A stretch of DNA of 64,000 nucleotides from Nitrospirales bacterium (GCA_965223295.1 CBDCWC010000003.1:1504001-1568000), one strand, 5' to 3'. Positions 23,033-51,342 are shown, numbered from the stretch's first letter. Program-made: numbers and translations. Notes: generated by a model from the sequence alone, not told the origin.

Positions 23033-23089
23033 TTAAAATCTCGAAAGAACGGCCCATGTCACGAGTAAAATAAGTGTAAATGCTTCCAT
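23033..23089 (-). CDS. Putative 18-aa hydrophobic micropeptide MEAFTLILLVTWAVLSRF
   Basis: AGGAGG RBS upstream of the ATG; first ORF downstream of a consensus sigma54 promoter; not in the ORF track. Confidence 0.6.
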   Translation of the reverse strand: MEAFTLILLVTWAVLSRF

Positions 23090-23144: not shown

Positions 23145-23160
23145 TGCAATGAAAGTGCCA
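23145..23160 (-). promoter_or_regulatory. Sigma54 -24/-12 promoter
   Basis: TGGCAC-TTTCA-TTGCA on the minus strand, a perfect consensus match. Confidence 0.85.
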
Positions 23161-23252
23161 AAGTCATTAGTTTTTAAATTAGATATTTTTTCAATGTTAT
23201 CGATTATTTATATGTGTAGTATCCTTTTCCCCAAGGTCTTATTCCCATGAGT

Positions 23253-23290
23253 GTGCGAGTAGCAAAATAACATGTGGTGCGAATCCGCTC
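23253..23290. promoter_or_regulatory. Tandem enhancer (UAS) pair A
   Basis: GTGCGAGTAGCAAA (23253) and GTGCGAATCCGCTC (23277), 24 bp apart. Confidence 0.7.
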
Positions 23291-23296
23291 AGGAGA

Positions 23297-23485
23297 ATGT
23301 TGAATAATGAAGATATCAAAAGCCATATTTCGCCATGAAGCTCTGGGCCATCAACAACCCCGGGTCTGTTCAAAAAAGTCCGCTCGCCTGCGCGAAGCCG
23401 CTACGGCGAAGGCAGGGAACGCTGCTCCGGCCTTCGTAGCCTACTGAGTTATTTCGGCGGAGTAAGCGGTGGCTATTTTCAACTG
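23297..23485 (-). mobile_element. MITE-like repeat, family A, copy 5 (with nested hairpin modules)
   Basis: atgttgaataatgaagatatcaaaagcc ... ctattttcaactg. Confidence 0.8.
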
Positions 23486-23627
23486 ACTCCTCAGGGAAAT
23501 GAGCCAATCAGAAAGAGCAATACAGATGAAAGAAAGAGCTGGATGAGGGACAGAACGAAGGAGAAAAGGGCAGACAATGAATTGGTTATATTATTTTGAA
23601 GGCTTCTCTGAATACCTCTGGTATGTG

Positions 23628-24419
23628 CTAAAAAACTAAGGATTTCTTCACGCCGTCACTCACGACATAAGAGGTCTCAACCCAAATCCAGTCTTTGTTG
23701 GCTGGGCCGTGAATTTGTACACCAGTCAAGACTGCATAGTCTGTTGTTTTGATATCCACGGTGAGTTGAATCATCCGCTCCAGATCTTCTTTGATAATGT
23801 GTTGAGTGACTTTGGTCAGTGTGACTAAGTCTGGAGTTTCTGCAAATCCACTTTTCTCAAACAACCGTTGTTGGAGAAGGCTTTGCTCAAGATCATCCTG
23901 ATCTAGCTCCAGGTTCACGTTTCCTTCTGAAATGTTTTCCTGAATCTTCAGTAAAGCGCCACAGGCGTGGGACATGGCGTGACGTCCTAAGCGGTGGCAA
24001 TTCCCTGGGTTGCCATGTTCATCGATGGCGATGTGGGGGAAGGCAAAATACACATACCGTTCCTTGCCATCAATATTGGGAGCGTGATGATGGGCGGCTT
24101 GAAACCCTGTGACGCCCAAATACAACATTCCAGCCAGACTGGAAAAGTCAAACGCCCCATTCCAGGCATTATGGAGTCTGTTCATGAATGCCGTGGTGAT
24201 TTCATCACGGCAGACGCTCACACAGGCAATGGAATTCTTCTGTTCTATCCCGAAGGGATGTAACCGGAATTGCGAGTAGTCCACGAATGCATCACAGGGA
24301 TAGGTACCAGGAAAGTGCCAATCTAAGGCTGTTCTGAAATCCGAAGGGCCAGGAGAAATTTCAGAAGTTGTTTCATATGAAGAAGAACTGGGTGAGAGCA
24401 GAGTCGGCATGAGCGTCAT
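23628..24419 (-). CDS. LCIB/LCIC-family (beta-type) carbonic anhydrase
   Basis: HFPG, SVCRDE, GVTGFQAAHHHAP, FPHIAI, HACGAL and TGVQIHG; the Cys/His/Cys zinc ligands are present. Confidence 0.85.
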   Translation of the reverse strand: MTLMPTLLSPSSSSYETTSEISPGPSDFRTALDWHFPGTYPCDAFVDYSQFRLHPFGIEQKNSIACVSVCRDEITTAFMNRLHNAWNGAFDFSSLAGMLYLGVTGFQAAHHHAPNIDGKERYVYFAFPHIAIDEHGNPGNCHRLGRHAMSHACGALLKIQENISEGNVNLELDQDDLEQSLLQQRLFEKSGFAETPDLVTLTKVTQHIIKEDLERMIQLTVDIKTTDYAVLTGVQIHGPANKDWIWVETSYVVSDGVKKSLVF

Positions 24420-24474
24420 TTCCTTAGTCAGAGCGTTTCAAAAGTGAATCATTGCCTCATAGACTTCTGATTAA

Positions 24475-24490
24475 AGCAAGGACAGTGCCA
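24475..24490 (-). promoter_or_regulatory. Sigma54 promoter of the LCIB-like gene
   Basis: TGGCAC-TGTCC-TTGCT on the minus strand. Confidence 0.85.
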
Positions 24491-24584
24491 GCGATCTTTT
24501 GCGCAGGCATTCAGAAGAATATCCGGGATTCCTTGTGGTTTTTGGTATTTCCTGTTCCGAGAACTGCTGTATGGAAAGTAGAAG

Positions 24585-24622
24585 GTGCGGGTTCGCACTA
24601 GGTGGACTGTGCGTAAAAAGTT
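24585..24622. promoter_or_regulatory. Tandem enhancer pair E
   Basis: GTGCGGGTTCGCAC (24585) and the half-site GTGCGT (24609), 24 bp apart. Confidence 0.65.
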
Positions 24623-24634
24623 TACCTTCGGGGT

Positions 24635-24851
24635 CTGTTGAAAAAAGCCGCCAGCAGCGTTCTCGCCATTGTTCCGTGCTCACGTACTGCCAGTACGCTC
24701 CGCGCGCAACAATGGCTGCGGCCTTGCTGGACCTGGCTTCGCCGAAGCGGCTTCGCACAGGCGAGCGGACTTTTTTGAACAGCCCCAATGCTGCTGATCG
24801 CGAATAGCTTCCTGACGAAATATGGCTCTTGATCTCTTCATTATTCAACAC
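24635..24851 (+). mobile_element. MITE-like repeat, family A, copy 6
   Basis: ctgttgaaaaaagccgcc ... ggacttttttgaacag ... ttattcaacac. Confidence 0.88.
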
Positions 24852-24924
24852 TCACCTTCGTGATATGGGTTGTGTAGGCGTCGTCAAGAATGATTTGCAG
24901 CTGCGGAACAGATTTTCACAACCG

Positions 24925-26268
24925 TCAGATCTGTTCGGTGAGGGCTTCCGGGGAAATATGGAGATGCCGAGCGGCTAGCTCTTTGTCCTGATTAGATAAT
25001 CGTAAAACTTCTTGAACAACCATGCGCTGGATTTCAGCTAGGGAGTGTTCTCCAAGTTCAAAGTGAATGCGTACGGTATTGGGTGAGAGTTGTTCGCTAT
25101 GGGATGCTGCCGGTTGAGAGGAAAAATCTAGAGCTGTGAGAACGGTGCCTTGAGAACAGAGGACAGCCCTTTTGGTCAATGCCTCCAATTCTCGAATATT
25201 CCCTGGAAATTGAAAATTCAGCAGAAGCGGAGGAACGGAAGGATCAATATCGAGTTTTTCCCGTCCAATTTCTTCGCCATAGGTTTGAAGAATTTTGAGG
25301 GTCAGAGGAATAATATCTTCCTGGCGTTCTCGAAGCGAAGGAATCGCAATGTGATTGTCTCGAAGGCGAGGAATCAATTTCGAATGAAAGACCTGGTCTT
25401 GCTCCGCTGATTGTGTACTGGCAGTCACAATACGCGCTTGAAGCGAGAGACGGTCATGTCCTCCCATTCGACAATAGGACCCGGATTCAATAGCCATGGC
25501 TAAGGATTCTTGGACGTCCAGAGGAATATGATCAAGCCCATCAATAAATAAGGTGCCGGCATGGGCGCGTTCCAAGGCGCCAGGCATAGCTTGATTGGCA
25601 CCGCTAAAGGCACCTCGTTCATAGCCAAAGAGTTGGGCTTCAAGGAGAAGCGCGTTTTGTTCTGTGCTATTAACAAAAATAAACGGGCCGATGTGCTTGG
25701 GACTGTTGTAATGAAGCACTCGTGCTAAAAATTCTTTTCCTGTTCCCACTTCACCTTGAAGAAACATCAGGGCCGTGTCTCCGTCTGCCAGCTTCTTCAG
25801 TTCTTCAACAACCTTCGCCATCGAGGCACTAGTGGCAATGACATGCTCCCACGCGTAGTGCCGTTGGTTTTCTAACGCGCTGTATTCGACCCGGCGTCGT
25901 AGTTCTAAGAAATTAAGAGCTCGGTCTAATGCAGGATCCACCGTTGAAAAATCAACGGATTTGATCACAAAGTCGTAGGCGCCTAGGCGTATCGCTTCGA
26001 CGGCATCTTCAACGCTGCCATATGCCGTTAACATCACGACCAATGGCTTGGAAGACGACTGCCGTACTTTTCCCAAAGTTTCCATCCCATCCATTTCAGG
26101 CATCTTGAGGTCGAGGAACATCAGGTCAGGAATTTCGTAGGTCAAGGCTTCCAGGAGTGCGTTTCCCGAGTTGAAGCTTCTGACGAGATGTCCCTTCCTG
26201 GCCAATCGTCGACTTAATGCGGAACAGACGTTCTGCTCATCATCGGTCACATAAATTGTTGCGCGCAT
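24925..26268 (-). CDS. NtrC-family response regulator with a degenerate AAA+ domain
   Basis: REC domain (TDDE, LDLKMP), Walker A GEVGTGKE, GAFSGA, Walker B altered to FIDG, FPGNIREL, C-terminal HTH. Confidence 0.88.
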   Translation of the reverse strand: MRATIYVTDDEQNVCSALSRRLARKGHLVRSFNSGNALLEALTYEIPDLMFLDLKMPEMDGMETLGKVRQSSSKPLVVMLTAYGSVEDAVEAIRLGAYDFVIKSVDFSTVDPALDRALNFLELRRRVEYSALENQRHYAWEHVIATSASMAKVVEELKKLADGDTALMFLQGEVGTGKEFLARVLHYNSPKHIGPFIFVNSTEQNALLLEAQLFGYERGAFSGANQAMPGALERAHAGTLFIDGLDHIPLDVQESLAMAIESGSYCRMGGHDRLSLQARIVTASTQSAEQDQVFHSKLIPRLRDNHIAIPSLRERQEDIIPLTLKILQTYGEEIGREKLDIDPSVPPLLLNFQFPGNIRELEALTKRAVLCSQGTVLTALDFSSQPAASHSEQLSPNTVRIHFELGEHSLAEIQRMVVQEVLRLSNQDKELAARHLHISPEALTEQI

Positions 26269-26583
26269 AGGGTTCCTTATTTTGAGAGAGCATTACAAAA
26301 CAATCGAGCCTAAAATTTTTCAGTCCAAAAAATAAAGAGGTCCCCAAAAACCGCCCCGTTTTGAGAGGGCATGAGACGAGTCATAGGACGGTTTGAGGAA
26401 ACCACCCCCGTTTTTGTCGGGGAAACAGGAAAAGTCTGTCTAGACAAGACTGCAAAGTCCATACTCAAACGGTTTTGTAGGTTTTAAGAGAGAATATAAA
26501 GAACGTATTCCGTATTTCAGCAATAAACTAGAAATGTTTCCTGTGTTGTCCTGTTCCCCAATTATCATATAACGCAAACGAGT

Positions 26584-26621
26584 GTGCGATGTTGCACGGG
26601 GCTGCCTGTGTGAAATGGCAC
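26584..26621. promoter_or_regulatory. Tandem enhancer pair B
   Basis: GTGCGATGTTGCAC (26584) and GTGTGAAATGGCAC (26608), 24 bp apart. Confidence 0.75.
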
Positions 26622-26687
26622 CTTTGAGGAAGGGTTAAACACTCCCATTCACGAAAATCTCATATCCATTTCGTAGTGAGGGAAGCT

Positions 26688-26703
26688 TGGTATTGGTTTT
26701 GCG
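26688..26703 (+). promoter_or_regulatory. Sigma54 promoter of the porin gene
   Basis: TGGTAT-TGGTT-TTGCG with correct GG-N10-GC spacing. Confidence 0.7.
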
Positions 26704-26756
26704 TTAAGAAAAGCTGAGACGGTTAACTCTGTGAGAAAACCAACTATTCATCTTAT

Positions 26757-26898
26757 GGGCACCTCTACAAACTGATGATTTTTTCTGAGGGCGGCGTTAG
26801 CGGCGCGCGGAAAACCGCAGTGTATGGGCCAATACATGAGGATTTGAGCGCGCTGCTAACGCCGCCATCGGGAAAAAGGACAGTTTTTAGAGGTGCCC
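26757..26898. mobile_element. Long-hairpin MITE, family B
   Basis: TIRs GGGCACCTCTAcAAAC / GTTTtTAGAGGTGCCC, inner stem GGCGGCGTTAGC/GCTAACGCCGCC, flanked by TTAT on both sides. Confidence 0.88.
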
Positions 26899-26920
26899 TT
26901 ATGTACTGAAAGAATGTCTG

Positions 26921-28300
26921 ATGACCTATTATATGATTTTCAGGATGCTTCTTGTTTTGAGTGTTTTTTCGGGAGGAGAAATCGTATTCGGAGCAGGAAA
27001 TCATAGCAAAGAATTCCCCAGTGACTTTGATCGATTGAAGACAATTTTACAGCAACCTAATTCCCTTTCCGCTGCGACCCCTAAATGGTTGGATGTGGGA
27101 GTGGAACATCGCACTCGTTATGGAACGTTTAATCATAGCTTTACCAGAGGGACGGCTGGAAGTAATCAACAAATTCATCAGCGCACAAGAATTCTCATGG
27201 GTATTAAGGATATCTGGGATCCTATGCGGTTTACACTGGAAGCCGCTGATTTTCGCACCCCTGTGGCAGATCGAGGACAAGATCGTAACCCAATTTTTGT
27301 TAATCATCTAGATATTTTTCAGCTCCATATAGATTTGGTGTCTCAGAATTTTTTGGGGTTGGGGCATTCGGGAAAACTTGAGATTGGTCGTATCATCATG
27401 GATTTTGGGAAGGGGCGTTTGGTCGCAGGCCACCGGTTTGGGACGTTTACCCCAACGTTCGATGGTGTGCAATTGACCTTTGGGTCTGATCCCAGCTCTT
27501 TGTGGAATGTTCGGGCCTTTGTCGCGAGACCGGTTCACCGACATTCGGTTAGTCCAGATTGGACCACGCCGATTAGCTACTTTTCAGGTGCGGCGATTTC
27601 AAGCCGGCATGTTCCATGGGCCAATGGAGAGCTGTATCTCTTTCAACTCAATGAAGGAAATAATCTTCAACGGCGCGATCTTTCCACAATGGGATTTCGG
27701 GTCTTTGCTCAGCCAAAGACACAGCAGTGGGATTATGAAATAGAGTCGATCTATCAAGTTGGGAAGGTAGACAAGACAGATCATTTCGCACATCGTCATC
27801 ATGGGGAGGTAGGGTATAGTTTTGGAACGGCGTGGCCGCTTCAGTTTGTGTATCTTTTCGACTATGCATCTGGAGATCCTAATCCAAAAAAGAACTTTGA
27901 TTTTTTGTTTGCCAAACGCCGCGCAGAATATGGGCCAACGGGAATCCTAGGTATTATTTTTCCTTCCAATATTCTTTCCCCTGTGGGTTTCCGTTCAACC
28001 ATCAAGCCCATCCCCACAGTCCAATGGATGATCTCTCATCGCACCTTCTGGCTGGCAGATAGCCGTGGTCCTTTTGTGGGTAGTGGGTTACAGGATTCTA
28101 CAGGTCGAGCAGGCACATTCCTGGGAAATTTGTTCGATACCTCGGTCAATTGGGCTCCGCAAGCAGGCTATTTGCGCCATGCGTCATTCGAAGTGGGATT
28201 TTCTCGTTTTTTCAAAGGCTCCTACTTTAATCGAGTCCCTCAAAGTCCAGGTACTGCGGATGTCAACTATGTGTATACGATGGCGACTCTTTCCTTCTAG
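26921..28300 (+). CDS. Alginate-export (AlgE-like) family outer-membrane porin
   Basis: Signal peptide, EHRTRY, GR..MDFG.GRLV, FDG and YASGD motifs, amphipathic strands, terminal Phe. Confidence 0.85.
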   Translation: MTYYMIFRMLLVLSVFSGGEIVFGAGNHSKEFPSDFDRLKTILQQPNSLSAATPKWLDVGVEHRTRYGTFNHSFTRGTAGSNQQIHQRTRILMGIKDIWDPMRFTLEAADFRTPVADRGQDRNPIFVNHLDIFQLHIDLVSQNFLGLGHSGKLEIGRIIMDFGKGRLVAGHRFGTFTPTFDGVQLTFGSDPSSLWNVRAFVARPVHRHSVSPDWTTPISYFSGAAISSRHVPWANGELYLFQLNEGNNLQRRDLSTMGFRVFAQPKTQQWDYEIESIYQVGKVDKTDHFAHRHHGEVGYSFGTAWPLQFVYLFDYASGDPNPKKNFDFLFAKRRAEYGPTGILGIIFPSNILSPVGFRSTIKPIPTVQWMISHRTFWLADSRGPFVGSGLQDSTGRAGTFLGNLFDTSVNWAPQAGYLRHASFEVGFSRFFKGSYFNRVPQSPGTADVNYVYTMATLSF

Positions 28301-28393
28301 CTCCATAACCTGACCTTTCTTTTTTTCAAAGACATTCATGTATCGTGGAGTCAGTGATTCATCATTTAGCACAATTTTTTACTTTTCCTTACC

Positions 28394-28431
28394 GGCTATT
28401 TTCGCACAGTGCATACCGTACGAATTCGCAC
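28394..28431. promoter_or_regulatory. Tandem enhancer pair C
   Basis: GGCTATTTTCGCAC (28394) and GTACGAATTCGCAC (28418), 24 bp apart. Confidence 0.72.
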
Positions 28432-28557
28432 AGGACACGAGTTTCGTTGAAAAAGGAGAAGGCTTTTCTTCGTTGCTTCGTGTGATGGTTCCGGATTTTA
28501 GTGAGAAATAAGGGGAAAAGACTCTGAATTGCCAATGACCATTTTCCTCATGTTTCA

Positions 28558-28573
28558 TGGCATGTGATTTGCC
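28558..28573 (+). promoter_or_regulatory. Sigma54 promoter of the BicA-like SulP gene
   Basis: TGGCAT-GTGAT-TTGCC. Confidence 0.78.
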
Positions 28574-28646
28574 CATTATCAAGAAGATTCAGCATTTTTC
28601 ATTCAATTCAAGACAGGCAATAGACTTCATAAAGGACGAATCGGCG

Positions 28647-30446
28647 ATGGATCAGATGATGAAAAGTTTTCGTGAGTATCTCAATACGTTTAACTTCAAA
28701 GAAAATTTTGAGGGATTGACCAGCAATGTGCGTGGGGACATGTTGGCGGGGATCACGGTGGCGATGGTAATCCTCCCGATGGCCTTGGCGTTTGGAGTCG
28801 CTTCAGGTCTTGGAGCTGTCGCGGGGATGTGGTCTGCCGTGGCAGCCGGTCTTGTTGCTGGCCCGTTAAGTGGATCGGCATGGTCGGTTGGCGGACCGAC
28901 GGGGCCAATGACGATTCAAATCCTGACCATTGCGCAGACACATCAAATATCTGATGGTTCTCCTGATTTAGTTTTTATTGCGACGATGATTGCTTTGGCG
29001 GGTTTGATCTTAATTACTCTTGGATTCTTGAAGCTTGGGCAATTTATTAAGTTCACTCCTTATTCTGTTATTTCTGGATTTATGACTGGGCTGGGTTTCC
29101 TGTATATGCTGCTTCAGCTCAATCCGTTTATCGGGTTACCTGGTGCGAAGAGCATTACGGCCGCCATCACAGAATTGCCCTCAACGATTGCACAGGCCTC
29201 CTTGCCGGCATTAGCAATTGGTCTTCTGACCTTAGTGATTGTGGTGATTTGGCCGAAAATTTCACCGGTGACGTGGCTGCCAGGACCGCTAATCGGTTTG
29301 TTTGTTGGGACGGTGGTGGCGACGACGTTGGGGTTAGACATTCCAAAAATTGGAGAGGTGCCAACCGGTTTACCTAAACTCTATTTACCCGATTTTACCG
29401 TTTTTCATGAAGCCTTTGTTCCGGCTGCCGCTCTCGCCGGTCTGTGTATCTTTGATAGTCTGCTCACCTGCCTCATCGTGGATAATATGACCGGAACTCA
29501 TCACAACAGTGACCGGGAACTCGTGGCTCAAGGATCGGCCAACTTATTTTCAGGAATGGTCGGCGGCTTAGGTGGGGCCACTAATACGATGCCTTGTGTG
29601 GTCGGGATTCAGAGTGGAGCAAAGACGCGATTGTGCTCGATCACCATGGGACTGGTTCTCCTTTCATTTATTCTTGGTTTAGGATCTCTGGCGGCTGCAA
29701 TTCCACTTTCTGCTTTGGCGGGGATTCTTCTGAAAGCCGGATATGACATTCTGGATATGCGTGTGCTTCCGGTGGTGCGAAGATTGCCAACCTCTGATCT
29801 CATGGTGTTTGCCCTCGTGGTGCTGATGACGGTTTTTTGGAATTTATTGTCGGCGATGGCGATGGGATTGGCTGTGGCGTTTTTCCGTTTTGTGAAGGAC
29901 CAATCAGATCGTTATAAGGCTGATCTCAATGTACGCAATGAAGACGTGAAGCAGGAAGAGGAAGATCTTATTTTCGCGTTTGGCCGAGATTATGCCCAAC
30001 GGATCAGTCTAAATGGGGCGAATATGGGAGAAATTAGCGGCCGCTTTGAACATCTGGTTCGAGATCGCATTATTATCGTTCGCCCCCATGGTCCCTTATT
30101 TTTCGGGGCCATTGATTGGTTAAATGAAACCGTAGAGGATCTCGAAAACAAAGACGTCCTCATCATTCGTTGTAAGTGGTTGGACGAGCTGGATTTGTCG
30201 GGTGCTTACGCGTTAGGTGACCTCATCGAGGCCGCGAATAGTCGCAATGTTGCAGTATTGACAGCTGGTATGTCGCCTAGGACGAAACAGGTTCTTGAAG
30301 ATTTGCACGAATTGGACAGGCTGGATCCAGATAATATCTGCACACATTTTAATGAGACCCTTGATAAAGCCATGCAAATCGTGGAGAAGAAAGCCCTTCA
30401 GGCCAAATCGAAATCTCAAGCAGAACCAACTCTGTCTTCGGGGTAA
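28647..30446 (+). CDS. SulP/SLC26 anion transporter, BicA-like, with STAS domain
   Basis: GDMLAG...LPMALAFGVASG, GPTGPMT, FDSLLT, RELVAQG and STAS motif GPLFFG...DLSG; start moved to ATG 28647 (AAGGA RBS, downstream of the sigma54 site). Confidence 0.9.
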   Translation: MDQMMKSFREYLNTFNFKENFEGLTSNVRGDMLAGITVAMVILPMALAFGVASGLGAVAGMWSAVAAGLVAGPLSGSAWSVGGPTGPMTIQILTIAQTHQISDGSPDLVFIATMIALAGLILITLGFLKLGQFIKFTPYSVISGFMTGLGFLYMLLQLNPFIGLPGAKSITAAITELPSTIAQASLPALAIGLLTLVIVVIWPKISPVTWLPGPLIGLFVGTVVATTLGLDIPKIGEVPTGLPKLYLPDFTVFHEAFVPAAALAGLCIFDSLLTCLIVDNMTGTHHNSDRELVAQGSANLFSGMVGGLGGATNTMPCVVGIQSGAKTRLCSITMGLVLLSFILGLGSLAAAIPLSALAGILLKAGYDILDMRVLPVVRRLPTSDLMVFALVVLMTVFWNLLSAMAMGLAVAFFRFVKDQSDRYKADLNVRNEDVKQEEEDLIFAFGRDYAQRISLNGANMGEISGRFEHLVRDRIIIVRPHGPLFFGAIDWLNETVEDLENKDVLIIRCKWLDELDLSGAYALGDLIEAANSRNVAVLTAGMSPRTKQVLEDLHELDRLDPDNICTHFNETLDKAMQIVEKKALQAKSKSQAEPTLSSG

Positions 30447-30519
30447 GAGTTACCCCGCTTTTTTGGAGAAATATTTTTCACATTGCTTTTTCAATCCCCT
30501 GACTATCAATTTCTGTCTC

Positions 30520-30720
30520 CAAGGAAAGGGCTCTCGTGCCGAAACGTCATAGCATCGCGCATGAACTGGCGCAGAACTTTCTCAATCACATCCCTGTCTG
30601 GCACAAGCTGACCATCCTGGGCTTTCTGTTCGTCGATCCCATCTTGCTGCTTTTGGCTGGCCTATTTGTGACCGGTGGGTGCTTATCTTGGAGTTTATCT
30701 TCACCCCCGCCATGGTCTAC
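30520..30720 (+). pseudogene. nhaB: Truncated, frameshifted copy of the nhaB 5' end
   Basis: Matches the RBS and first codons of the intact nhaB at 59893; has a 1-nt frameshift and an 81-bp internal deletion. Confidence 0.9.
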
Positions 30721-30941
30721 TATTCGGAGTATGGAAATGAGTGGGTTGATCTGAAACTCGGGAAAAAACTAGCCATTATATGAAAACTGAGACACTTGGA
30801 AAATAACTCAATTGAAGTCATGGACAAGAACGAAGTCAATATCTTACCTTCACAGTGCTGCAGTTGCTCAAATGATCGGACCTGTATCTTCATGATGTCC
30901 TATCCATTTCTTCAGTGGCATGTGAGGAACTTTTACAGGGT

Positions 30942-32861: not shown

Positions 32862-32863
32862 CG

Positions 32864-34252: not shown

Positions 34253-34275
34253 AGTCATGCAGCAGGCCACGACTT

Positions 34276-34371
34276 TTAGTCGTCTTTTTTCTTTCGGCTT
34301 TTCACCAAAACAATGATGCCAGCAATCCCGATGGCCAAAGAAAGAAATCCAAGTAAGGCTAACCCTTCCAT
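34276..34371 (-). CDS. Putative 31-aa single-TM small protein MEGLALLGFLSLAIGIAGIIVLVKSRKKKDD
   Basis: GAGGGA RBS; TM helix followed by a basic stop-transfer tail; not in the ORF track. Confidence 0.65.
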   Translation of the reverse strand: MEGLALLGFLSLAIGIAGIIVLVKSRKKKDD

Positions 34372-34453
34372 TTCAATCCCTCTATCTTGGTATCCATGAC
34401 GTGCAGACCTTGTAGTATGTTACGAAAGTACAAGGCTATTTGCTCTCTCCTCT

Positions 34454-34891
34454 TCAGGCATCATACCGAAAACGATCTCGATATTCTTCTGGCGGGACGT
34501 AGCACGCATCCAGCGTTCCCCGCAACTGATAGCGATGCCGGGCAATGAAGTCATACACCCCATCTCGTAAATTTTTTGGTAGTAAAAGAAAGACCGAGAA
34601 GATCGGCCAGAGGCCTTCAAGCTGGCGGGCAATGTTCAGGGCTGCCGTTGACTTGGTCAAGTGGCCGTCGGGAGTAATTACGACAAACGTCGAAAATTCT
34701 TGTTGTGGCAATTCATACTTGGACAGGAATTGTTGTCCAAGAGGGGATTGGAGTGGGGTAAATTGAAATCGTTTCCCGGTATCACGGGTGATGAGAAATC
34801 GAACCCATCCAGTGCACCATTCGCAGACTCCATCAAAAAGAATCAACCATGGGGTTTGGGGGAGATGTTGAGAAAATGGGATGTGCTTCAT
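34454..34891 (-). CDS. DCC1-like thiol-disulfide oxidoreductase (DUF393); start uncertain
   Basis: FDGVCEWC (DxxCxxC), FTPLQS and YDFIARHRY motifs. Confidence 0.88.
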   Translation of the reverse strand: MKHIPFSQHLPQTPWLILFDGVCEWCTGWVRFLITRDTGKRFQFTPLQSPLGQQFLSKYELPQQEFSTFVVITPDGHLTKSTAALNIARQLEGLWPIFSVFLLLPKNLRDGVYDFIARHRYQLRGTLDACYVPPEEYRDRFRYDA

Positions 34892-35061
34892 CAAAATGGT
34901 TTGTTCCAAATTCTTATCTAGTCCATACAGCTTGGCAGTTAGCTTGGCAGTTGAATCAATCATCTGTCTAGTACGACTAATATCTCTTGAGACAAGCGCA
35001 AGATTGTCGGATGATGGCTCGCTTGGTACAATGGCGTTTTTCATGAACATGCCATCGCCTC

Positions 35062-37389
35062 ATGCTTGCTGATGTTGTTCTGCCAAGTCGGCGGTTTCAA
35101 GTCTTTACCTACCAGGTTCCTGCACAATTGGTGGCTTCTATCCATATTGGAAGCCCGGTTACCGTGCCATTAGGGCCGACGGTCATTTCAGGACTCGTCG
35201 CGAGTATCTATGATCATGAATCGTTGGTACCTGAAAACAAGCCACTTCGCTACACGTCCTTGCGGGCCATCCTTACCGTGGAAACGGAAACCTCTCAGGT
35301 TCCCCTGGGACGAAATCTGTTCCGGCTTGCCGAGAAAATTTCGGCCTATTATCTCGTTCCGCTTTCCACCTGTTTGCGGCTTATTGTCCCTCCCTATTCC
35401 GTAAAGATGAGCAAACGTCTTCTGCTCACGGAAGAGGGACGTGCAGCATTAGGGAAATCATCACTCTCAAAAACGAGCAGGGCCGTACTTCGTAAATTGG
35501 AGCATGCGCCCAATGGGTTGCTCCGTTCCTCTATGACCCGATCGATGAACGATGCGGATGTGGCAGCCACGTTGGACTTTGTGAAAATGAAGGGATGGGT
35601 CGTTGAGAAAACAGCGAGTCATTCCCATTCCAGAGGAAGAAAACGTCCACGCGCTTCACGGGCAAAGTTTGAGACCCCAAATTTATTCGATTCTCTGAAT
35701 CAAGGTGACAAGTCTTTTGAGGAAGCGTGGATTGAAACAGGTTCTTTTGTAGACGTGTCATTTCCGTTTTGGTCAACCATGGCCAAGGCAATACGTGCCG
35801 GTGGGTTTCAGGAAGTCTCTGTAGTGGGTGTGGAGTCAGTTCGACGAAAGCTTCTGCTAGAAACTATCAAAACCATTAACAAACAAGGAAAGCAGGCGTT
35901 AATCCTGATGCCTGAGGTACACCAGGCAGAAACCTTGGCTGACGATCTGCAGACTATTTGGAAAGACCAAGTCGAAGTCTATCATGGACAGCTTTCTTCA
36001 TTTGTGCGTGTTGAAGGATGGGAACGAATTCATCAAGGAGAGGCTTCTATCATTGTGGGAACGCGTTCCGCGCTGTTCCTGCCTTTTGCCGATCTTGGCC
36101 TTGTGTGGGTTGAAGAAGAACAAGATGCGTCTTACAAAGACGAACATCTTCCCTATTATCATGCGCGGGAAGTGGCCCGGATGCGAGGAGAAATTGATAG
36201 GGCTCTGGTGGTATATGGCGCCACTTGCCCATCGTTGGAATCCTATAGCCGGTTTCCTCTTCCAAACTCTAATCACGCGGAGCCGTTTAATACCCAGGTT
36301 TTGCATAAGGATAAGCCAAAGGTGGAGATGATTGACCTCGGTTCTTTGCCATTTGGCACAACGCTGGCTCCCCAGTTAATGATGAGTGTGAGGCGTACGT
36401 TGGAGGCCGGACAACAAATTATTCTATTGTTGAATCGGAAAGGGTTTTCTCGTGCGTTGATTTGCCAGGACTGCGGGCAGGCACCAAAATGTTTGAACTG
36501 TGGGCTCACTCTTATGCTTTTTCATCGTCCTGCTCGTTTGGTCTGTTCCTATTGCGACAACAAACAGGAAACTCCGGAGATTTGTCCAAGTTGCCAGGGA
36601 TCGATTTTTCGCCATTCAGGAATGGGGACTCAACGACTAGAAGAGGAGCTTGCCGAGCTAGTGCCACCATATTCAATAGCACGTTTGGATCGTGAAAATG
36701 TGAAGACGATGGAAGAAGCCAACAGAATTTTGCAGCAATTTAGGCAGCAGAAGATTCAAATTCTGATCGGAACGGAATTCTTGCTTCACCAAGCCATTCC
36801 ACCAACGGCTCCGTTGGTTGTCTTACCTCAAGCTGACCTTGGGCTGCATATCCCAGATTTTCGATCATCTGAGCGCACATTTCAGATGCTGTCCAAAGCT
36901 GTTGCCTTAGCGCAGAATGAGCATCAGCTAGGACAGGTTATTCTTCAAACTCGAATGCCAGATCATCATGTCCACCAAGCTATTTACCACGGTGATCCCT
37001 GTATATTTTATGATCAAGAATTAGAGCTGCGGGAGGCGTTAGGGTATCCGCCAGCCACGCATGTCATTTTGTTAGTCATCACAGGTGCCCAAGAGCATCG
37101 AGTAAAGAGGGTGGTTGATCGTTTAAGTACGCAGTTGGCTGATTGTGGTATGAAGGGGAGAGTGGGTGAAGAAGAGAAAGGACTGCTCTCATTGCCAATT
37201 GCTTTAGGACCGATGGCGTCAAGAAAATCTGGAAGTGCAAAAAAGAACCGAACCTTGTTTCTTATTAAAACCGAAAATTTGGCAGACACGAAACGTCATC
37301 TTCGGCAAATTCAAGACATCTTGAAAGAACAATTCTCTAAAGATGGGGTTGTCTGTGAAATGAACGTGGATCCAATTACTATTCAGTAG
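35062..37389 (+). CDS. priA: Primosomal protein N' (PriA)-like, Walker A degenerate
   Basis: N-terminal FTY.VP, GTRSALFLP, YHAREVA, LNRKGF, four CxxC, PDFRSSE, terminal VDP. Confidence 0.85.
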   Translation: MLADVVLPSRRFQVFTYQVPAQLVASIHIGSPVTVPLGPTVISGLVASIYDHESLVPENKPLRYTSLRAILTVETETSQVPLGRNLFRLAEKISAYYLVPLSTCLRLIVPPYSVKMSKRLLLTEEGRAALGKSSLSKTSRAVLRKLEHAPNGLLRSSMTRSMNDADVAATLDFVKMKGWVVEKTASHSHSRGRKRPRASRAKFETPNLFDSLNQGDKSFEEAWIETGSFVDVSFPFWSTMAKAIRAGGFQEVSVVGVESVRRKLLLETIKTINKQGKQALILMPEVHQAETLADDLQTIWKDQVEVYHGQLSSFVRVEGWERIHQGEASIIVGTRSALFLPFADLGLVWVEEEQDASYKDEHLPYYHAREVARMRGEIDRALVVYGATCPSLESYSRFPLPNSNHAEPFNTQVLHKDKPKVEMIDLGSLPFGTTLAPQLMMSVRRTLEAGQQIILLLNRKGFSRALICQDCGQAPKCLNCGLTLMLFHRPARLVCSYCDNKQETPEICPSCQGSIFRHSGMGTQRLEEELAELVPPYSIARLDRENVKTMEEANRILQQFRQQKIQILIGTEFLLHQAIPPTAPLVVLPQADLGLHIPDFRSSERTFQMLSKAVALAQNEHQLGQVILQTRMPDHHVHQAIYHGDPCIFYDQELELREALGYPPATHVILLVITGAQEHRVKRVVDRLSTQLADCGMKGRVGEEEKGLLSLPIALGPMASRKSGSAKKNRTLFLIKTENLADTKRHLRQIQDILKEQFSKDGVVCEMNVDPITIQ

Positions 37390-37413
37390 GATACCATTGC
37401 CAGTGCCAAAAAA

Positions 37414-37851
37414 TTACCGTGATTTCTTTTTGGATTTCTTCCTTGGGGGTGTGCCTGAAGAAGGTTCAGGGAAGGGGTGGTGACTGATGGAGCCCTGGGT
37501 GCGTTTAAAGATTCCATAGGCAAAGGTCATCCAAAACACTCCGGAAAAGAGACCAAATATAACAGCGTTAAAAATACGTTCTAATTCTTCCATCGGTGGT
37601 TCAGGCCCTAATTGTTGTAGGTCAGCCATTTGCATCAAAGGCCAAGCAATACTTTCTACTCCTAATAGTAAGGTACATGCAGCCCAGATGTAGCCGATAG
37701 ACGAGCATTTCCAGGCCAGGATCATTGCCAAACCGATACCAATAGCAATTCCAAGTGGTATGGGTACTGCCCCGAGCAAGAGCCACAACCCTATTGTAAC
37801 CGTGAGGCTCCCCAGCACGGCATTAAGTTGATGCCATAGATTACTGTTCAT
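37414..37851 (-). CDS. Hypothetical membrane protein (about 4 TM)
   Basis: Hydrophobic segments and a basic C-terminal tail. Confidence 0.7.
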   Translation of the reverse strand: MNSNLWHQLNAVLGSLTVTIGLWLLLGAVPIPLGIAIGIGLAMILAWKCSSIGYIWAACTLLLGVESIAWPLMQMADLQQLGPEPPMEELERIFNAVIFGLFSGVFWMTFAYGIFKRTQGSISHHPFPEPSSGTPPRKKSKKKSR

Positions 37852-37949
37852 AAGACATATTCTTTATTCTTCGGGTGTAAAATGCTCACACCATATCACA
37901 GCTCTTTTCCCTAGAGCAGCTGAGGAATGAAAATGTGGATATTTAGCGA

Positions 37950-38822
37950 TTATCGACCAATATCGGCTAGGGGTTCGGAAGAGAGAATATATTCTCCTCG
38001 AGGATTATTTGTGAAGGTATTGGCCTGGGGTAGCTTCTCAGGTTCCGGGGTGGGGTGGGAATCTGGTGTCATGACTATTCCCCACTGAGCGTTCTGTTCA
38101 AAGGTATTGTCCAAAATTAGGGCTTGTGCCTGCGAAAAGAGCAAGAGGCCACTTAGCATATTATCGCGGCAAATGTTTTTAACCACATCTGGGCGAGTAT
38201 TCTCATCTCGAGCCGCGATACCAAAGTGGTGATTTCCGAAACAGTCATTCTGCCGCAAGTAGGGTTGAGCTCCGGCAAACGAAAAAATACCGGATTCTCG
38301 GTTATGACAAATCTCATTCTCTTGCAATGTTGGACGACAGTCGGGACCATATATGACCACTCCTGAGAGGAGCCCCTCTGTGGCCCGGCATTGAGAAATC
38401 GTACATGCTGAATCCAAGATGTTGATGGCTGAATGTTGGTCACTGCCCACATACCGAAAGGTCATGCCGCTAATTTGCCCACTTGAAACTCGTTGTAAGT
38501 AGCAGGGGCCACTTCGTCGATAATAAATGGTGACAGAGTCACGTCCTGCACCAATTAAATGAATTGGCCGTTCGGTAATGGTGACACGATCTTCGTAAAT
38601 CCCGGGTCTGACGAAAATTTGATCATTCGATTCAGCTTGTTTCAATGCTTCGCTAGGAAGGGCAAAACAATCTGGTTGATTGGGATCGACGATTAAGGTT
38701 CGTCCTCCAAGCGGATTGGAAGGAGGCTCAGTTAAAGAATGTGGTTGACTGCTCAGAAGTTTTACTCCCCTGGCAAGGGTGACTTGGCAATGAGTGGAAT
38801 GGGTAAATCGGTGTTGTACCAC
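37950..38822 (-). CDS. Right-handed parallel beta-helix (NosD/CASH-like) protein; start uncertain
   Basis: IFVRPGIY.D start motif and repeated N...N..SG/GI units. Confidence 0.8.
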   Translation of the reverse strand: MVQHRFTHSTHCQVTLARGVKLLSSQPHSLTEPPSNPLGGRTLIVDPNQPDCFALPSEALKQAESNDQIFVRPGIYEDRVTITERPIHLIGAGRDSVTIYYRRSGPCYLQRVSSGQISGMTFRYVGSDQHSAINILDSACTISQCRATEGLLSGVVIYGPDCRPTLQENEICHNRESGIFSFAGAQPYLRQNDCFGNHHFGIAARDENTRPDVVKNICRDNMLSGLLLFSQAQALILDNTFEQNAQWGIVMTPDSHPTPEPEKLPQANTFTNNPRGEYILSSEPLADIGR

Positions 38823-38942
38823 ATCTATCGTGACTTCTCATCCACGAAATGCTGGGGACATGCCACAGAAGAACCTTGTTAATGATGACAGGGGTCAAGA
38901 GGTTGTTGATCGTACGGGCGGGAAAAATTGTTACCTAGAAGT

Positions 38943-40436
38943 CTATAAACTCGGGAGCCATGTGATGAGTCGCTTCAGAATCTTCAGGGTAGGGTGTTCG
39001 CGCCAACACCCTTGTTTCCAGATCATCCGTTGAGAAGTTTTTTTAGCCCAATCGATATTATCAGAATCGCAATTTCCGGTGATCATACATTGCCTGTTGT
39101 ATCGTCGAAGAGCTTCAACGGCTTTACAGTCTGCTAGTTGGTTAAGCGCCCATCCGTAGTTCAGCCAGTACCAAGGTTTTTCTGGTTTCAGCTGGACTGC
39201 TTTTTTGAGATAGGGTAGCGCTTGTTTAGGGCTATGTAGATCAGCCAGATACAATCTTCCCAGTTTGCCTACGACTCTGTGGTCGTAAGAACCATACGTC
39301 AAGGCTTGAGTCAACACAATTTCCGCTTCTTGCAACTTGCGGTGGCGCGTGAGTCTCCAAGCGTAGCGGCGGAGATTTCCTGGATCCAGTTCATCAAGCG
39401 CAATAGCTTTAGCTTGCTCCTCCAATGCTTCTTCAGGACGGTCAAGAGCTTGGAGAGCCCGTGCTCGATAATCATAGACATCCGCTACTTGTGGGCGGGC
39501 TTGGAGGGCCGCAGTGAATACGTCCAGGGCTTCTTCGTCCCGATCAAGGTAAAACAGGGACTGTCTATAGCTGAAGGAATAATAGTAATAACGTCCGTGT
39601 TTAAGCGCGGCTTTATAATGTGGAATAGCATTTTCTTCGTCATCATTCCGGTCGAACATTTCTCCTTGGATGTAATCCGGAAACCCTAAAAGAGGCCTGA
39701 GATTTGAATTTCGGTCTAGCACAGGTAAGACTTCTTTTTTGAGGAATGCGTCTGTATTTGCAAGACTGTCCTTAAGAGGCATGCTACTCCACTAAGGTGT
39801 TTGGCTGTATAGATATTTCCATCGTATTGCGAATGAATTAGGGTCGGCCTGGAGGCCTTTGAGGGTATATTGGAGAGTCCCATCTCTATCTCCCAAGACC
39901 ATAGCAATATTGATCAGGAACGCGTACGGGATCCCAGAGTGTTTTTTTAAACTGGAGGCAAGCTTAAGATCCTTCCAGGCTACTGCAAAATTTTCTTTCA
40001 TGCCTAAAACCCGTTCATTTGGAGTATCTGAGAAAAACGCGAATCCTCGGCATTTCCACCCTCTATTCCAGTAGTACATGCCACGGGCAAGGTGGGCTGT
40101 CCCTTTCGACTTTTTTCGAGCCACCCATTCATTTAGTTTTTCTTCAAGATCGGCCGCAGAATTAGCAAATGCGTGGTAGGCGGCTTCCACGTGTTCTTCT
40201 GGAATGTTCTTGGTCTGGTACAGACGTTCCTGTCGAGTGAGAATCTGTTCTAACTTTTGGTAATGACCTTGGCGTAGATGGTTGAGAAGTTCAAGCCGAT
40301 CCAAAAACTCGGCATGGACTATTTCTGGAGAAAAGAAAAAGACTAGTAGGCCGAACCATAAGCCTAGTGCTCGGATTGCTGGCAGAGTTTGAGGAATCGC
40401 AGGGACGAGAAAAGAGTGATGAGCGTGACGTACCAT
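38943..40436 (-). pseudogene. DUF4034-like plus TPR exported protein interrupted by one in-frame TAG (39792-39794)
   Basis: ORFs 39792..40436 and 38943..39782 are in the same frame and read ...YSQTP*WSSMPLK... Confidence 0.75.
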
Positions 40437-40695
40437 GATGAAATCCCGGGAATAGGTGAACTGTCTTTATTCCCTTTCGGTTGGGATTGTTGTTTAGTGT
40501 AGGAGGAATCTCTGGAGTTGTTAATTATTGGACCTTTTCCCAGTGACGGAAATATAAAAAGGTAGCCTCACAATGAGGAATCAAGAAATCCTGCGTGATT
40601 CCTGAGAGGCAGAGAGTAGTTTATTAGGAGGGAATAATTGTCATTCATCCCTCGCAAACGGAACTCTAAGTTACAAGGAAGACGAGGATAGTGAG

Positions 40696-41373
40696 TTAGT
40701 TATTCTCGAAGGCTTGGCGAGTGGCAAAGACTTCCCCTGGATGGATCAACAACAAGCAGTCTCCATCAACGGGATCTTTGTGAAACAGCGCGAAGGCAAG
40801 GCAAAGCTGCGGCGTCGGTTCCGGGGGAAACTCTAAAAGTACGGGAACATCAATTAGGGGTGTGGGCTCCTTCAGACTGGCCAGGCGAAGTCGCACGGCA
40901 ACTAAGGTCTGGCGGATGCGGGTGTGAATGTGTTGTTCGGTAAGATCTGGAGAGGAAGTAATGTATTGCTCCCAGAGCGGATTCGTCATGCCTACACAAA
41001 AGTCTAAGCCGATACTTTGCGCCGATGGAGTCACATCTTTAAGAATCCCGGATTCGATGGCCTCTCGTCGTATGCGAATGGTGAACTGTTTCAGGTCTGG
41101 TGGGATTTCTTGAGCGTTCACCGAATCGGGAGTTGTCAATTCCAATACGCTATCGGAAGAAGAGTCTTCTCTATGGTCAATCAAAGCGGGCAATTCAGGT
41201 AGGGAAGGATCCTCTGAGACAGGAAGTTCAGAGGGGTCATTGCCAAGGGCTTGTATGATGCCTTCATAAACGGATTTGGCAGAAGCGGTCCAATTTTCAT
41301 CTTGAGGCAATCCACGAAAAGCGGCTTCTGAGGCCTTCTTTTCGTCATGCGTTAAAGGGCGTGGTGATATCAT
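40696..41373 (-). CDS. Hypothetical protein
   Basis: 225 aa ORF; two folded-looking segments joined by an acidic linker. Confidence 0.7.
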   Translation of the reverse strand: MISPRPLTHDEKKASEAAFRGLPQDENWTASAKSVYEGIIQALGNDPSELPVSEDPSLPELPALIDHREDSSSDSVLELTTPDSVNAQEIPPDLKQFTIRIRREAIESGILKDVTPSAQSIGLDFCVGMTNPLWEQYITSSPDLTEQHIHTRIRQTLVAVRLRLASLKEPTPLIDVPVLLEFPPEPTPQLCLAFALFHKDPVDGDCLLLIHPGEVFATRQAFENN

Positions 41374-41458
41374 ACTTACAAGGTAAGTTAATTTGACAGA
41401 AAGTCAAGTATTACCAATGAATTATTAATAAAAGTAAGTAAGTAGCCTTCTTCCTTGT

Positions 41459-41496
41459 GAGCGAAATCGCACTTTCATCACAGAGCGAAAACGCTC
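41459..41496. promoter_or_regulatory. Tandem enhancer pair D
   Basis: GAGCGAAATCGCAC (41459) and GAGCGAAAACGCTC (41483), 24 bp apart, followed by an AT-rich spacer. Confidence 0.78.
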
Positions 41497-41604
41497 TTTT
41501 TTATAATATCCACCATAAATATATAGAAAATAGTTGCATGAAAATTGTTAAATTATATAAATATTTCAATTGTTTATGTGTTTATTTACGACACAATTAA
41601 ATAT

Positions 41605-41620
41605 TGGAATATAATTTGCA
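41605..41620 (+). promoter_or_regulatory. Sigma54 promoter upstream of the micropeptide and the sulP-dabA-mrp cluster
   Basis: TGGAAT-ATAAT-TTGCA. Confidence 0.75.
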
Positions 41621-41663
41621 GAATAATCATTGTATTACGTTAATTTATTGTAAGGAGCAAACA

Positions 41664-41735
41664 ATGGATCCACTTTTTGATTTAGCCATGATCGCCGTAG
41701 TTGCCATTATGGTTGGTTTTAATATTTACGGGTAA
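41664..41735 (+). CDS. Putative 23-aa TM micropeptide MDPLFDLAMIAVVAIMVGFNIYG
   Basis: TAAGGAG RBS; directly behind the sigma54 promoter; followed by the hairpin ATTTCTCTT/AAGAGAAAT. Confidence 0.65.
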   Translation: MDPLFDLAMIAVVAIMVGFNIYG

Positions 41736-42143
41736 TTAACCTTCTTTCATTTCTCTTGTAGTAAAAAGAGAAATTGAGGCGGTGTTGATCCGGGATCCCT
41801 CCCCAGTTTCTTCCATTCTTCAGGTCCTCTCTTCAAATCAAAGTGTTTCTACGTAATTAAAACTTCATAAGATCAAGGTTTTTAAGGAATTTTTTCTAAA
41901 ATTTCTTGAGGTCGCCCACTCCCTCCTGGTATATCTCTTTGACATCTCAAGGAGTTACGTAAAGCCGATAGCTTAAAGTTAGAGGTTTTTCAAAAATTCC
42001 ATTTCCCTTAAACAGTATGGGTTCTATCCAAATTATCGAGTGACTGACTCTCAGGAAGAAAAAAGGGGTCGGTGTCAATGCAAGCCGGTTTGTGTTGCTG
42101 GAAAGTGCTCCGGTAACTGGGACCGGCTTTGTTGTATAAGGTT

Positions 42144-48221: not shown

Positions 48222-48222
48222 C

Positions 48223-51334: not shown

Positions 51335-51342
51335 AGGAAGCT

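Follow-up and report, generated by a model that had tools for sequence, protein, structure and literature searches.

The window analysed here is a stretch of 64,000 bp (C3:1504001-1568000) from the genome of a Nitrospirales bacterium, an order of major nitrite oxidisers, the genome comprising 3.78 Mb in three contigs with 47% G+C. Its central part holds a set of genes for putative anion transport and carbonic anhydrase, preceded by five sigma-54 (-24/-12) promoters, P1 to P5, which share a tandem enhancer of two palindromes, here also called the upstream activating sequence (UAS). At one side of a gene island are two minus-strand genes, a 324-aa open reading frame (ORF) and a Tll0287-like gene. 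The island itself consists of an 18-aa micropeptide, an LCIB-type carbonic-anhydrase-like gene, the activator-like gene EBPA, an outer-membrane barrel of the Alginate_exp family and SulP1, and is followed by a CHASE3-HAMP-PAS histidine kinase and a REC-AAA+-HTH_8 activator, EBPB, then by housekeeping genes including priA and, further on, by a 23-aa micropeptide, sulP2, dabA and an Mrp-like antiporter cluster. The gene calls made earlier from the sequence by eye (hereafter the original prediction) were recovered by Pfam and profile matches to LCIB_C_CA, Alginate_exp, two SulP/STAS proteins, DabA, a Tll0287-like protein (PF11845), the kinase and REC-Sigma54_activat-HTH_8. The genome also carries rpoN (PF04552 at 198 bits, a 508-aa open frame at C3:1901322). 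The features are, in window coordinates:

22151-22726, minus strand: Tll0287-like (PF11845) gene, a doubtful member of the regulon
23033-23089, minus strand: micropeptide 1, MEAFTLILLVTWAVLSRF, 18 aa, with Shine-Dalgarno sequence GGAGG; identical peptide in the related locus L014
23146-23160, minus strand: P1 sigma-54 -24/-12 box TGGCACTTTCATTGC, 0 mismatches; the L014 counterpart is TTGGCATTACCATTGC
23253-23290, minus strand: P1 enhancer, a half-site and a full palindrome 24 bp apart, kept in L014
23628-24419, minus strand: LCIB-type beta-carbonic-anhydrase-like gene, LCIB_C_CA (PF18599) at 189 bits
24476-24490, minus strand: P2 sigma-54 box TGGCACTGTCCTTGC, 0 mismatches; 11 of 15 columns invariant in the window, L005 and L014
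24585-24622, minus strand: P2 enhancer, a full palindrome and a half-site
24925-26268, minus strand: EBPA, a degenerate NtrC-type paralogue with intact REC, GAFSGA, Walker B of DG and no HTH_8 match
26584-26621, plus strand: P3 enhancer, two near-full palindromes
26688-26702, plus strand: P3 sigma-54 box TGGTATTGGTTTTGC, 2 mismatches
26921-28300, plus strand: outer-membrane beta-barrel (Alginate_exp; porin), the N-terminus reading like a signal peptide
28394-28431, plus strand: P4 enhancer, a half-site and a full palindrome
28558-28572, plus strand: P4 sigma-54 box TGGCATGTGATTTGC, 1 mismatch
28647-30446, plus strand: SulP1 (SulP/STAS), top NCBIfam match BicA, below cut-off
30942-32861, plus strand: sensor kinase CHASE3-HAMP-PAS-HisKA-HATPase; the ORF opens with GTG at 30915, the likely start being ATG at 30942
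32864-34252, plus strand: EBPB, REC-AAA+(GAFTGA)-HTH_8 activator, proposed binder of the palindromes
41459-41496, plus strand: P5 enhancer, two full palindromes
41605-41619, plus strand: P5 sigma-54 box TGGAATATAATTTGC, 2 mismatches
41664-41735, plus strand: micropeptide 2, MDPLFDLAMIAVVAIMVGFNIYG, 23 aa, with Shine-Dalgarno sequence GGAG; found in this genome and in 7 loci
41900-42141, plus strand: sigma-70-like promoter (-10 at 41930-41935) and two-hairpin leader with intrinsic terminator
42520-44157 and 44161-47226, plus strand: sulP2 and dabA
47431-54978, plus strand: Mrp/Mnh-like antiporter genes downstream of dabA, with MnhE, MbhD/E, MnhB and three Proton_antipo_M among the ORFs scanned

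When the boxes were compared with the consensus TGGCAC-N5-TTGC, all five that had been predicted were confirmed, the earlier minus-strand coordinates being one base off. GG and GC are intact in every one of them and the mismatches number 0, 0, 2, 1 and 2 for P1 to P5. The ten 14-mers related to the full palindrome GTGCGA-N2-TCGCAC (14 bp) likewise begin exactly where they had been placed, and each pair has the layout 14+10+14, giving 24 bp start-to-start. Six sites have two mismatches or fewer to GTGCGANNTCGCAC, and a seventh, at 41483, is perfectly palindromic with three. Some members are merely half-sites (23253, 24609 and 28394), as had been noticed before, and all three keep the promoter-proximal CGCAC half when read in promoter orientation, so that the most constant feature is a CGCAC every 24 bp. 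The gap from the end of the UAS to the box measures 67-127 nt, in agreement with the distance of about 65-130 bp given earlier, and the centres of the sites lie at approximately -98 to -183 relative to the predicted transcription start. The arrangement shows what is expected of a tandem enhancer, i.e. paired palindromes ~80-200 bp upstream that are conserved and linked to an activator gene. A search for binding sites of IHF gave just two matches with one mismatch to the consensus WATCAANNNNTTR (at P1 and P5), too weak to claim such a site; genes of the HU/IHF family are present in the genome. No Rfam family reached its gathering score in the window.

Taken by itself the box pattern has little specificity, with 81 matches at two mismatches or fewer in the window against 59.3 expected. 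The palindrome, on the other hand, gave 11 matches against 1.66 expected, a count reached in none of 100 shuffles. Genome-wide there are 66 palindrome matches in 3.78 Mb, 11 of them within these 64 kb (1.7% of the sequence), and four of the seven genome matches with at most one mismatch fall at window positions 24585-41459. The weight of the argument therefore lies in co-occurrence and conservation, the box pattern by itself being mildly enriched, and together these observations support the five promoter regions as sigma-54 promoters with one common tandem enhancer.

For the rest of the genome a symmetrised position weight matrix was built from the ten window sites and used to scan for pairs at spacings of 14-44. 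Since the training sites were those chosen in the original prediction, circularity was avoided by means of untrained sites, the spacing histogram, cross-genome footprints and control loci. The six best pairs genome-wide all have a spacing of 24 bp and three of these, untrained, are located elsewhere on contig C3; the background frequency of motif pairs, proposed earlier as a check, hence speaks for the motif, 24-bp pairs being enriched genome-wide and holding the top six places. Outside the part of the window at 20-45 kb, a spacing of exactly 24 bp is found in 3/5 neighbouring site pairs of at least 10 bits and in 2/2 of at least 12 bits. Of the pairs with spacing 24, 6/15 are followed within 20-220 nt by a box matching at least 8/10 consensus positions, compared with 0-3 of 4-19 pairs for each of the other twelve spacings between 18 and 30. 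That the regulon reaches beyond the window is thereby supported.

One of the untrained pairs, at C3:1081116, is followed 117 nt on by the box TGGAATGCCCTTTGC, a 61-aa ORF and then a third SulP/STAS gene, SulP3. The 61-aa ORF, at C3:1080931 on the minus strand, begins MNPIFDLVVIGMIV and is homologous to micropeptide 2. Another pair, at C3:402338, is situated 230 bp upstream of EBP_C, a gene for a GAF-AAA+-HTH_8 (NifA-like) activator which is followed by a single-domain response regulator gene. EBP_C lies directly downstream of nxrAB-like genes, whose products resemble the alpha and beta subunits of the type II dimethyl sulfoxide (DMSO) reductase family, as expected for nitrite oxidoreductase (NXR). 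In the own genome (C3:399056-406000; L098, L101) the order is nxrA-like, nxrB-like, terminator, tandem enhancer, NifA-like activator and single-domain response regulator. At least six clear promoters can accordingly be predicted in the genome, those of micropeptide 1, the LCIB-type carbonic anhydrase, the outer-membrane channel, SulP1, micropeptide 2 (upstream of sulP2-dabA-mrp) and the micropeptide-2 homologue with SulP3. A seventh is probable upstream of EBP_C beside the nxrAB-like genes and would make the system a two-tier sigma-54 cascade; the enhancer and box upstream of EBP_C are the sole grounds on which we infer this step from EBPB to EBP_C.

To follow these elements in relatives, which are not independent samples, 20 kb was fetched around each of 16 EBPB orthologues; in the same genus, orthologues of at least 79% identity were listed in 20/24 genomes. 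Pairs spaced by 24 bp occur in 11 of the 16 loci and the other five are without any target gene in the stretch fetched. The 259 kb around EBPB orthologues hold 15 pairs, while the control, 1.06 Mb around 65 non-orthologous activators, gave none at 24 bp and one at 23 bp. Alignments of orthologous regions revealed the enhancers and boxes as conserved islands within diverged intergenic DNA, where the 14-mers and boxes alone are conserved and the 10-bp spacers and the flanks diverge. Over all, 53-68% of the enhancer columns are invariant compared with 7-21% in the remaining intergenic DNA: for P4 25/38 against 21/293 elsewhere (7 species), for P3 26/38 against 69/614 (6 species), for P5 20/38 against 48/262 (5 species) and for P2 22/38 against 93/452 (3 species). 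P1 and micropeptide 1 recur in L014.

Of the boxes, that of P4 (9/10) is kept in 7/7 relatives at 116-129 nt after the enhancer. Boxes of the TGGAAT-N5-TTGC type matching at least 8/10 positions were found for P5 in 4/7 relatives, 108-110 nt after the enhancer and there with the sequence TGGAAT-N5-TTTGC, and for SulP3 in 5/7. The P3 box is present in 4/7 relatives at 189-214 nt compared with 67 nt in the window, a tolerance of distance that is typical of enhancers. The SulP3 enhancer is present in 9/13 loci. Upstream of EBP_C the enhancer, spaced by 23 or 24 bp, was found in 8/10 loci, each with a GG/GC box before the gene, and an nxrB-like gene adjoins the EBP_C orthologue in L101-L106.

What lies between the Tll0287-like gene and the kinase is variable: the island, which runs from micropeptide 1 to SulP1, is inserted there in the window, L005, L006, L010, L011, L014, L017, L019 and L020 and is missing in ten other same-genus loci. 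In four of eight loci (L005, L006, L010 and L011) a sigma-54-like box of the GGGCATAGCCTTTGC type faces EBPA ~130 nt from the P3 enhancer, which suggests that this enhancer is bidirectional there. No such box was found on the EBPA side in the window, L014, L019 or L020, the equivalent position in the window reading GA, not GG.

Outside the genus, Nitrospira has EBPB orthologues with 66-68% identity. In eight Nitrospira loci the same palindromes, as GGGCGAGATCGCAC-N9-GTGCGAAATCGCTC, are found 23 bp apart, and from there it is ~190 bp downstream to the orthologous kinase gene; all eight loci have a sigma-54 box directed at the divergent operon, and three of the eight have another directed at the kinase. 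The divergent target in seven of the loci is a channel of the formate/nitrite family, then an EmrB-type major facilitator superfamily (MFS) gene, and in L032 genes for an outer-membrane factor and an HlyD-type protein come next, as in an EmrAB-type efflux pump. L013, a locus of another family, has a SulP gene beside the kinase/EBPB pair with a 24-bp pair in front of it.

EBPB has the features of an NtrC-type enhancer-binding protein (EBP), namely REC, Sigma54_activat (231 bits) and HTH_8 domains together with GAFTGA and the Walker A/B sequences GETGTGKE and LFLDEIG. Its helix-turn-helix, NK[ST]LAAK.LG[IL]TRF[AS]LDRR[LV]KK, is shared by this genus, Nitrospira and a third family, the recognition helix TRFALDRRLKK being nearly invariant across these taxa, and it was found in no other activator or open frame of this genome. 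When compared with NCBIfam equivalog models EBPB stays below every cut-off (AtoC 443 against 714, NtrC (TIGR01818) 411 against 558.6 and ZraR 336 against 760 bits) and is thus not an equivalog of AtoC, NtrC or ZraR. Because the motif is syntenic with it across the order, its recognition helix is conserved and unique, and rpoN is in the genome, EBPB with its adjacent kinase is the best candidate for the regulator of the paired palindromes. The embedded kinase/activator pair (30942-34252) had been proposed as controller, and on these grounds that choice stands, with binding itself being predicted.

EBPA is clearly paralogous to EBPB and has preserved its receiver domain well, and binding assays with both response regulators had been proposed earlier. 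Of the two, only EBPB is supported as a candidate binder. EBPA carries GAFSGA at its loop, or GAFDGA in L014; its Walker B varies between DG, DE and DA from one orthologue to another, its arginine-finger and sensor motifs have disappeared, with an FH(S/P)-type sequence in place of FRED, and its recognition helix, which gives no HTH_8 match, has acidic or neutral residues where EBPB has basic ones. Hence it lacks the GAFTGA, Walker B DE, arginine finger and HTH_8 of a functional EBP. EBPA is carried only by genomes with the carbonic-anhydrase/porin/SulP1 island, and genomes without a listed EBPA copy (G004, G006, G009, G014 and G016) keep the enhancers. It is therefore an unlikely binder; one may speculate that it is rather a modulator, for example a phosphate sink or a subunit of mixed rings.

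The LCIB-type carbonic anhydrase, the porin and SulP1 as targets of P2, P3 and P4 agree with the original prediction, which gave for P1 a micropeptide and then the Tll0287/DUF3365 gene and for P5 a micropeptide followed by sulP-dabA-mrp. The Tll0287/DUF3365 gene is doubtful as a target of P1, given that island-less genomes have no enhancer upstream of it and that micropeptide 1 in L014 is not followed by it; in the island-less genomes another conserved block is common to the intergenic regions between Tll0287 and kinase. The LCIB-type protein has no obvious signal peptide when its N-terminus is read by eye. DabA (1021 aa) scores 866 bits, and downstream of its gene are three Proton_antipo_M genes in the Mrp-like cluster, not a single dabB; a DabA followed by a full Mrp/Mnh-like set is an unusual arrangement. 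All three SulP proteins are SulP/STAS by Pfam, and none reaches the cut-off of 880 bits of the BicA model NF050096 (NCBIfam), SulP1 scoring 338, SulP2 105 and SulP3 409 bits. BicA is nevertheless the top NCBIfam match for SulP1 and SulP3, while SulP2 matches the general sulP model and DauA better.

Small hydrophobic conserved peptides head three of the regulon operons. A count from the two ORFs of micropeptide 1, in the window and L014, gave nine synonymous and no non-synonymous differences, as expected of a peptide under purifying selection. The 23-aa peptide MDP[LI]FD[LI]AMI..FN[IF]YG occurs in the own genome and seven loci, and the 61-aa variant before SulP3 in the own genome and three loci. 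Small membrane subunits and leader peptides are both conceivable roles for these micropeptides.

The spacer of ~530 bp that follows micropeptide 2 and leads up to sulP2 shows conservation in six species, and within it are a sigma-70-like promoter (CTTGAGG, 17-18 nt, TGGTATATC) and a leader of ~100 nt with two hairpins, the second being an intrinsic terminator; leader and promoter are also found in L007, L016, L019, L020 and L021. RNAalifold proposes 29 pairs for the leader, five of them with compensatory changes, and the window copy folds with -41.5 kcal/mol (z = -5.1). The region 41600-42560 matched no Rfam family beyond a chance-level match of E = 0.1. The leader is a candidate attenuator or riboswitch. 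Since the sigma-70-like promoter and the terminator-bearing leader intervene, the predicted link from P5 to sulP2-dabA has to be qualified and read-through from P5 is putative.

Starting from the computed cis-elements, which are enriched, conserved and linked to the genes of the kinase and EBPB, it is likely that the paired palindromes are the UAS for EBPB, which would switch the genes of the regulon together by binding, phosphorylation and activation as follows. The adjacent membrane kinase, with its CHASE3 periplasmic sensor, HAMP and PAS domains, would phosphorylate the receiver domain of EBPB, and two EBPB dimers would occupy the two 14-bp sites 24 bp apart, often one strong site and one half-site. 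This binding would nucleate the AAA+ ring, which would then contact the sigma-54 holoenzyme at the -24/-12 box ~70-130 nt downstream and open the promoter. As the targets are a carbonic anhydrase, DabA, three SulP transporters and an outer-membrane channel, the signal sensed would most likely be linked to the supply of inorganic carbon, a suggestion that we make tentatively.

A number of observations weigh against this reading. Transcription starts, co-regulation and the identity of the binder are all predicted, the genome encodes about 21 full-length activators, and the choice of EBPB among these rests on synteny and on conservation of its helix-turn-helix. A search of sequencing runs listed no RNA run that contains the sequence, and the one metatranscriptome of the same study had next to none of its sequence words. 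Boxes of at least 8/10 are missing for P3 in 3/7, for P5 in 3/7 and for SulP3 in 2/7 relatives, the EBP_C box of the own genome, CGGTATCAATTTTGC, matches only 7/10 positions, and among the relatives the pair before the EBP_C orthologue is absent from L102 and shifted in L103. To this can be added the high-scoring 24-bp pair at C3:115794-115831, near which neither a sigma-54 box nor any convincing target gene or small ORF was found (its neighbours are a gene of the small multidrug resistance (SMR) family and a glutamate dehydrogenase gene), and the conserved terminator between micropeptide 2 and sulP2. Two further points weaken the carbon signal in particular. The enhancer of EBP_C next to the nxr-like genes hints at a tie to nitrite oxidation, and as the targets in Nitrospira are a channel and an efflux pump, with no channel of the formate/nitrite family in the present genome, the signal sensed may not be inorganic carbon.

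Three other explanations have to be compared with the proposed one. That the motif pairs arose by chance or belong to a dispersed repeat, with no regulatory role, might be suspected from sites picked by eye, from a box pattern that is only mildly enriched (81 against 59) and from a repeat resembling repetitive extragenic palindromic (REP) elements that occurs in several of these intergenic regions. It is largely refuted, and we regard it as extremely improbable, by the shuffles, none of which reached the observed count, by the untrained sites with exactly the same spacing and by conservation limited to the 14-mers and boxes while spacers and flanks diverge; in the sequences read, moreover, the 38-bp pairs and the REP-like repeat occupy separate places. 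The same cis-architecture could also be read by another protein, be it EBPA, EBP_C (by autoregulation), one of the ~19 other activators or a repressor or activator that is not an EBP. The number of activators encoded gives room for this, one pair lies directly upstream of EBP_C, and EBPA is found inside the island between P2 and P3, with a sigma-54-like box on its side of the P3 enhancer in half of the eight loci. EBPA is, however, devoid of an HTH_8 match and of basic recognition residues and the five genomes with no EBPA listed keep the enhancers; EBP_C and the remaining activators have different recognition helices, and EBP_C, which gave matches (E≤1e-150) in 12/31 genomes searched, is not adjacent to other targets. 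The motif, on the contrary, accompanies the kinase/EBPB pair into Nitrospira, and sites at -98 to -183 relative to a sigma-54 promoter are placed as in an enhancer, not as in an operator. A reader other than EBPB is consequently considered unlikely.

The third explanation leaves EBPB and its sites as described and differs in the signal, which would be the status of nitrite or energy, stress from pH or weak-acid anions, or some other anion; the genes for SulP, DabA and carbonic anhydrase would then belong to a wider programme of anion and pH homeostasis or of growth-substrate use. The formate/nitrite-family channel and EmrB-type MFS gene as divergent target in seven Nitrospira loci point that way, and so do the enhancer before a NifA-like activator beside nxrAB-like genes in this genus, the scores of the SulP proteins below the BicA cut-off, with SulP2 closer to the general sulP model and DauA, and a sensor domain, CHASE3, for which the profile results name no ligand. 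The LCIB-type carbonic anhydrase and DabA with its 866 bits, in contrast, point to CO2 and bicarbonate, and BicA is the top NCBIfam match for SulP1 and SulP3. A signal other than inorganic carbon is a serious possibility, and we stop short of calling it probable. NifA-like or sigma-54-dependent regulators beside nxrAB have been noted in Nitrospira and are thought to control expression of NXR (PMC6606698).

Returning to EBPB and the carbon-linked signal, a more far-reaching version can be formulated, in which the CHASE3 kinase and EBPB with DctD-like tandem enhancers would be an ancient master switch of the Nitrospirales coupling carbon supply to energy metabolism, co-activating three SulP proteins, DabA-Mrp, carbonic anhydrase and porin and, via the cascade, the NifA-like regulator at the side of nxrAB. 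This version we consider doubtful. As further layers the degenerate, DNA-blind EBPA of the mobile island may tune the system as a phosphate sink or poison subunit, and the membrane peptides of 18-61 aa heading three operons may be new subunits or regulators of SulP.

The mechanism proposed is an ordinary one. NtrB/NtrC at glnAp2 likewise uses a phosphorylated REC-AAA+-HTH activator, paired palindromes ~100-140 bp upstream and sigma-54. In Klebsiella, NtrC activates nifLA and with it a further activator, NifA. This cascade resembles the proposed step from EBPB to EBP_C, with a different motif and regulon. The regulators of CO2-concentrating and uptake systems in autotrophs, CcmR/NdhR, CmpR and CbbR, which control genes for the uptake of bicarbonate and CO2, are LysR-type, sigma-70-dependent and metabolite-sensing, in contrast to the membrane kinase, enhancer-binding protein and sigma-54 found here. 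To our knowledge the regulation of carbon acquisition in Nitrospirales is essentially unstudied, the known carbon-uptake regulators being of the LysR type.

Among described cis-architectures the DctD enhancer of dctA comes closest; its tandem DctD sites reportedly differ 50- to 100-fold in affinity, going by the title of the 1992 paper of Ledebur and Nixon. The sensor in the present system is CHASE3, the periplasmic sensor of DctB being of another type. DctB/DctD at dctA of Rhizobium meliloti is likewise a two-component system with an NtrC-type activator, a sigma-54 transporter promoter and two adjacent unequal sites, and the DctD site published there, 5'-TGTGCGgaaatCCGCACA-3', shares its GTGCG/CGCAC cores with the present motif (PMC11077940), the core spacer being 6 nt in the DctD site and 4 nt here (GTGCG-A-NN-T-CGCAC). 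Unlike in DctD, the pair spacing is fixed, at 24 bp and in Nitrospira at 23 bp, and the targets are SulP, DabA, carbonic anhydrase and porin, that of DctD being DctA. No DctD model is among the NCBIfam matches of EBPB. The best-scoring named families are AtoS/AtoC and ZraS/ZraR (EBPB 443 bits for AtoC and 336 for ZraR, the kinase 245 for AtoS and 214 for ZraS); the kinase is far below the cut-offs of 646 for AtoS and 479 for ZraS, and both sensor domain and targets differ from those systems.

In the full texts searched, including PMC12316311 and with supplementary files excepted, no paper was found that links sigma-54 or an EBP to DAB, SulP or carbonic anhydrase genes in Nitrospira or Nitrospirales. 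The regulon, which is real and conserved and has a well-supported candidate regulator, is new in its content, in the degenerate paralogue, in the micropeptides and in the possible cascade to an nxr-linked activator. It is also defined in testable form, its elements being the enhancer of 38 bp, six or seven promoters and an identified kinase/activator pair, and it points to two-component control of DAB, SulP and LCIB-type carbonic anhydrase genes through sigma-54 and suggests a regulatory link to an nxr-associated activator. The motif can be used for regulon prediction in other Nitrospirales genomes and for the design of reporter and DNA affinity purification sequencing (DAP-seq) experiments with proteins of an uncultured organism.

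The REP-like repeat mentioned above also resembles miniature inverted-repeat transposable elements (MITEs) and gave 63 blastn matches genome-wide, mostly of 40-80 nt. Two copies were identified by blastn in the window, at 23358-23486 and at 42125-42330, the latter directly after the terminator of the sulP2 leader, and similar-looking GC-rich stretches can be seen by eye at ~24630-24790 and ~26780-26880. The REP-like copies occupy the intergenic regions flanking the island.

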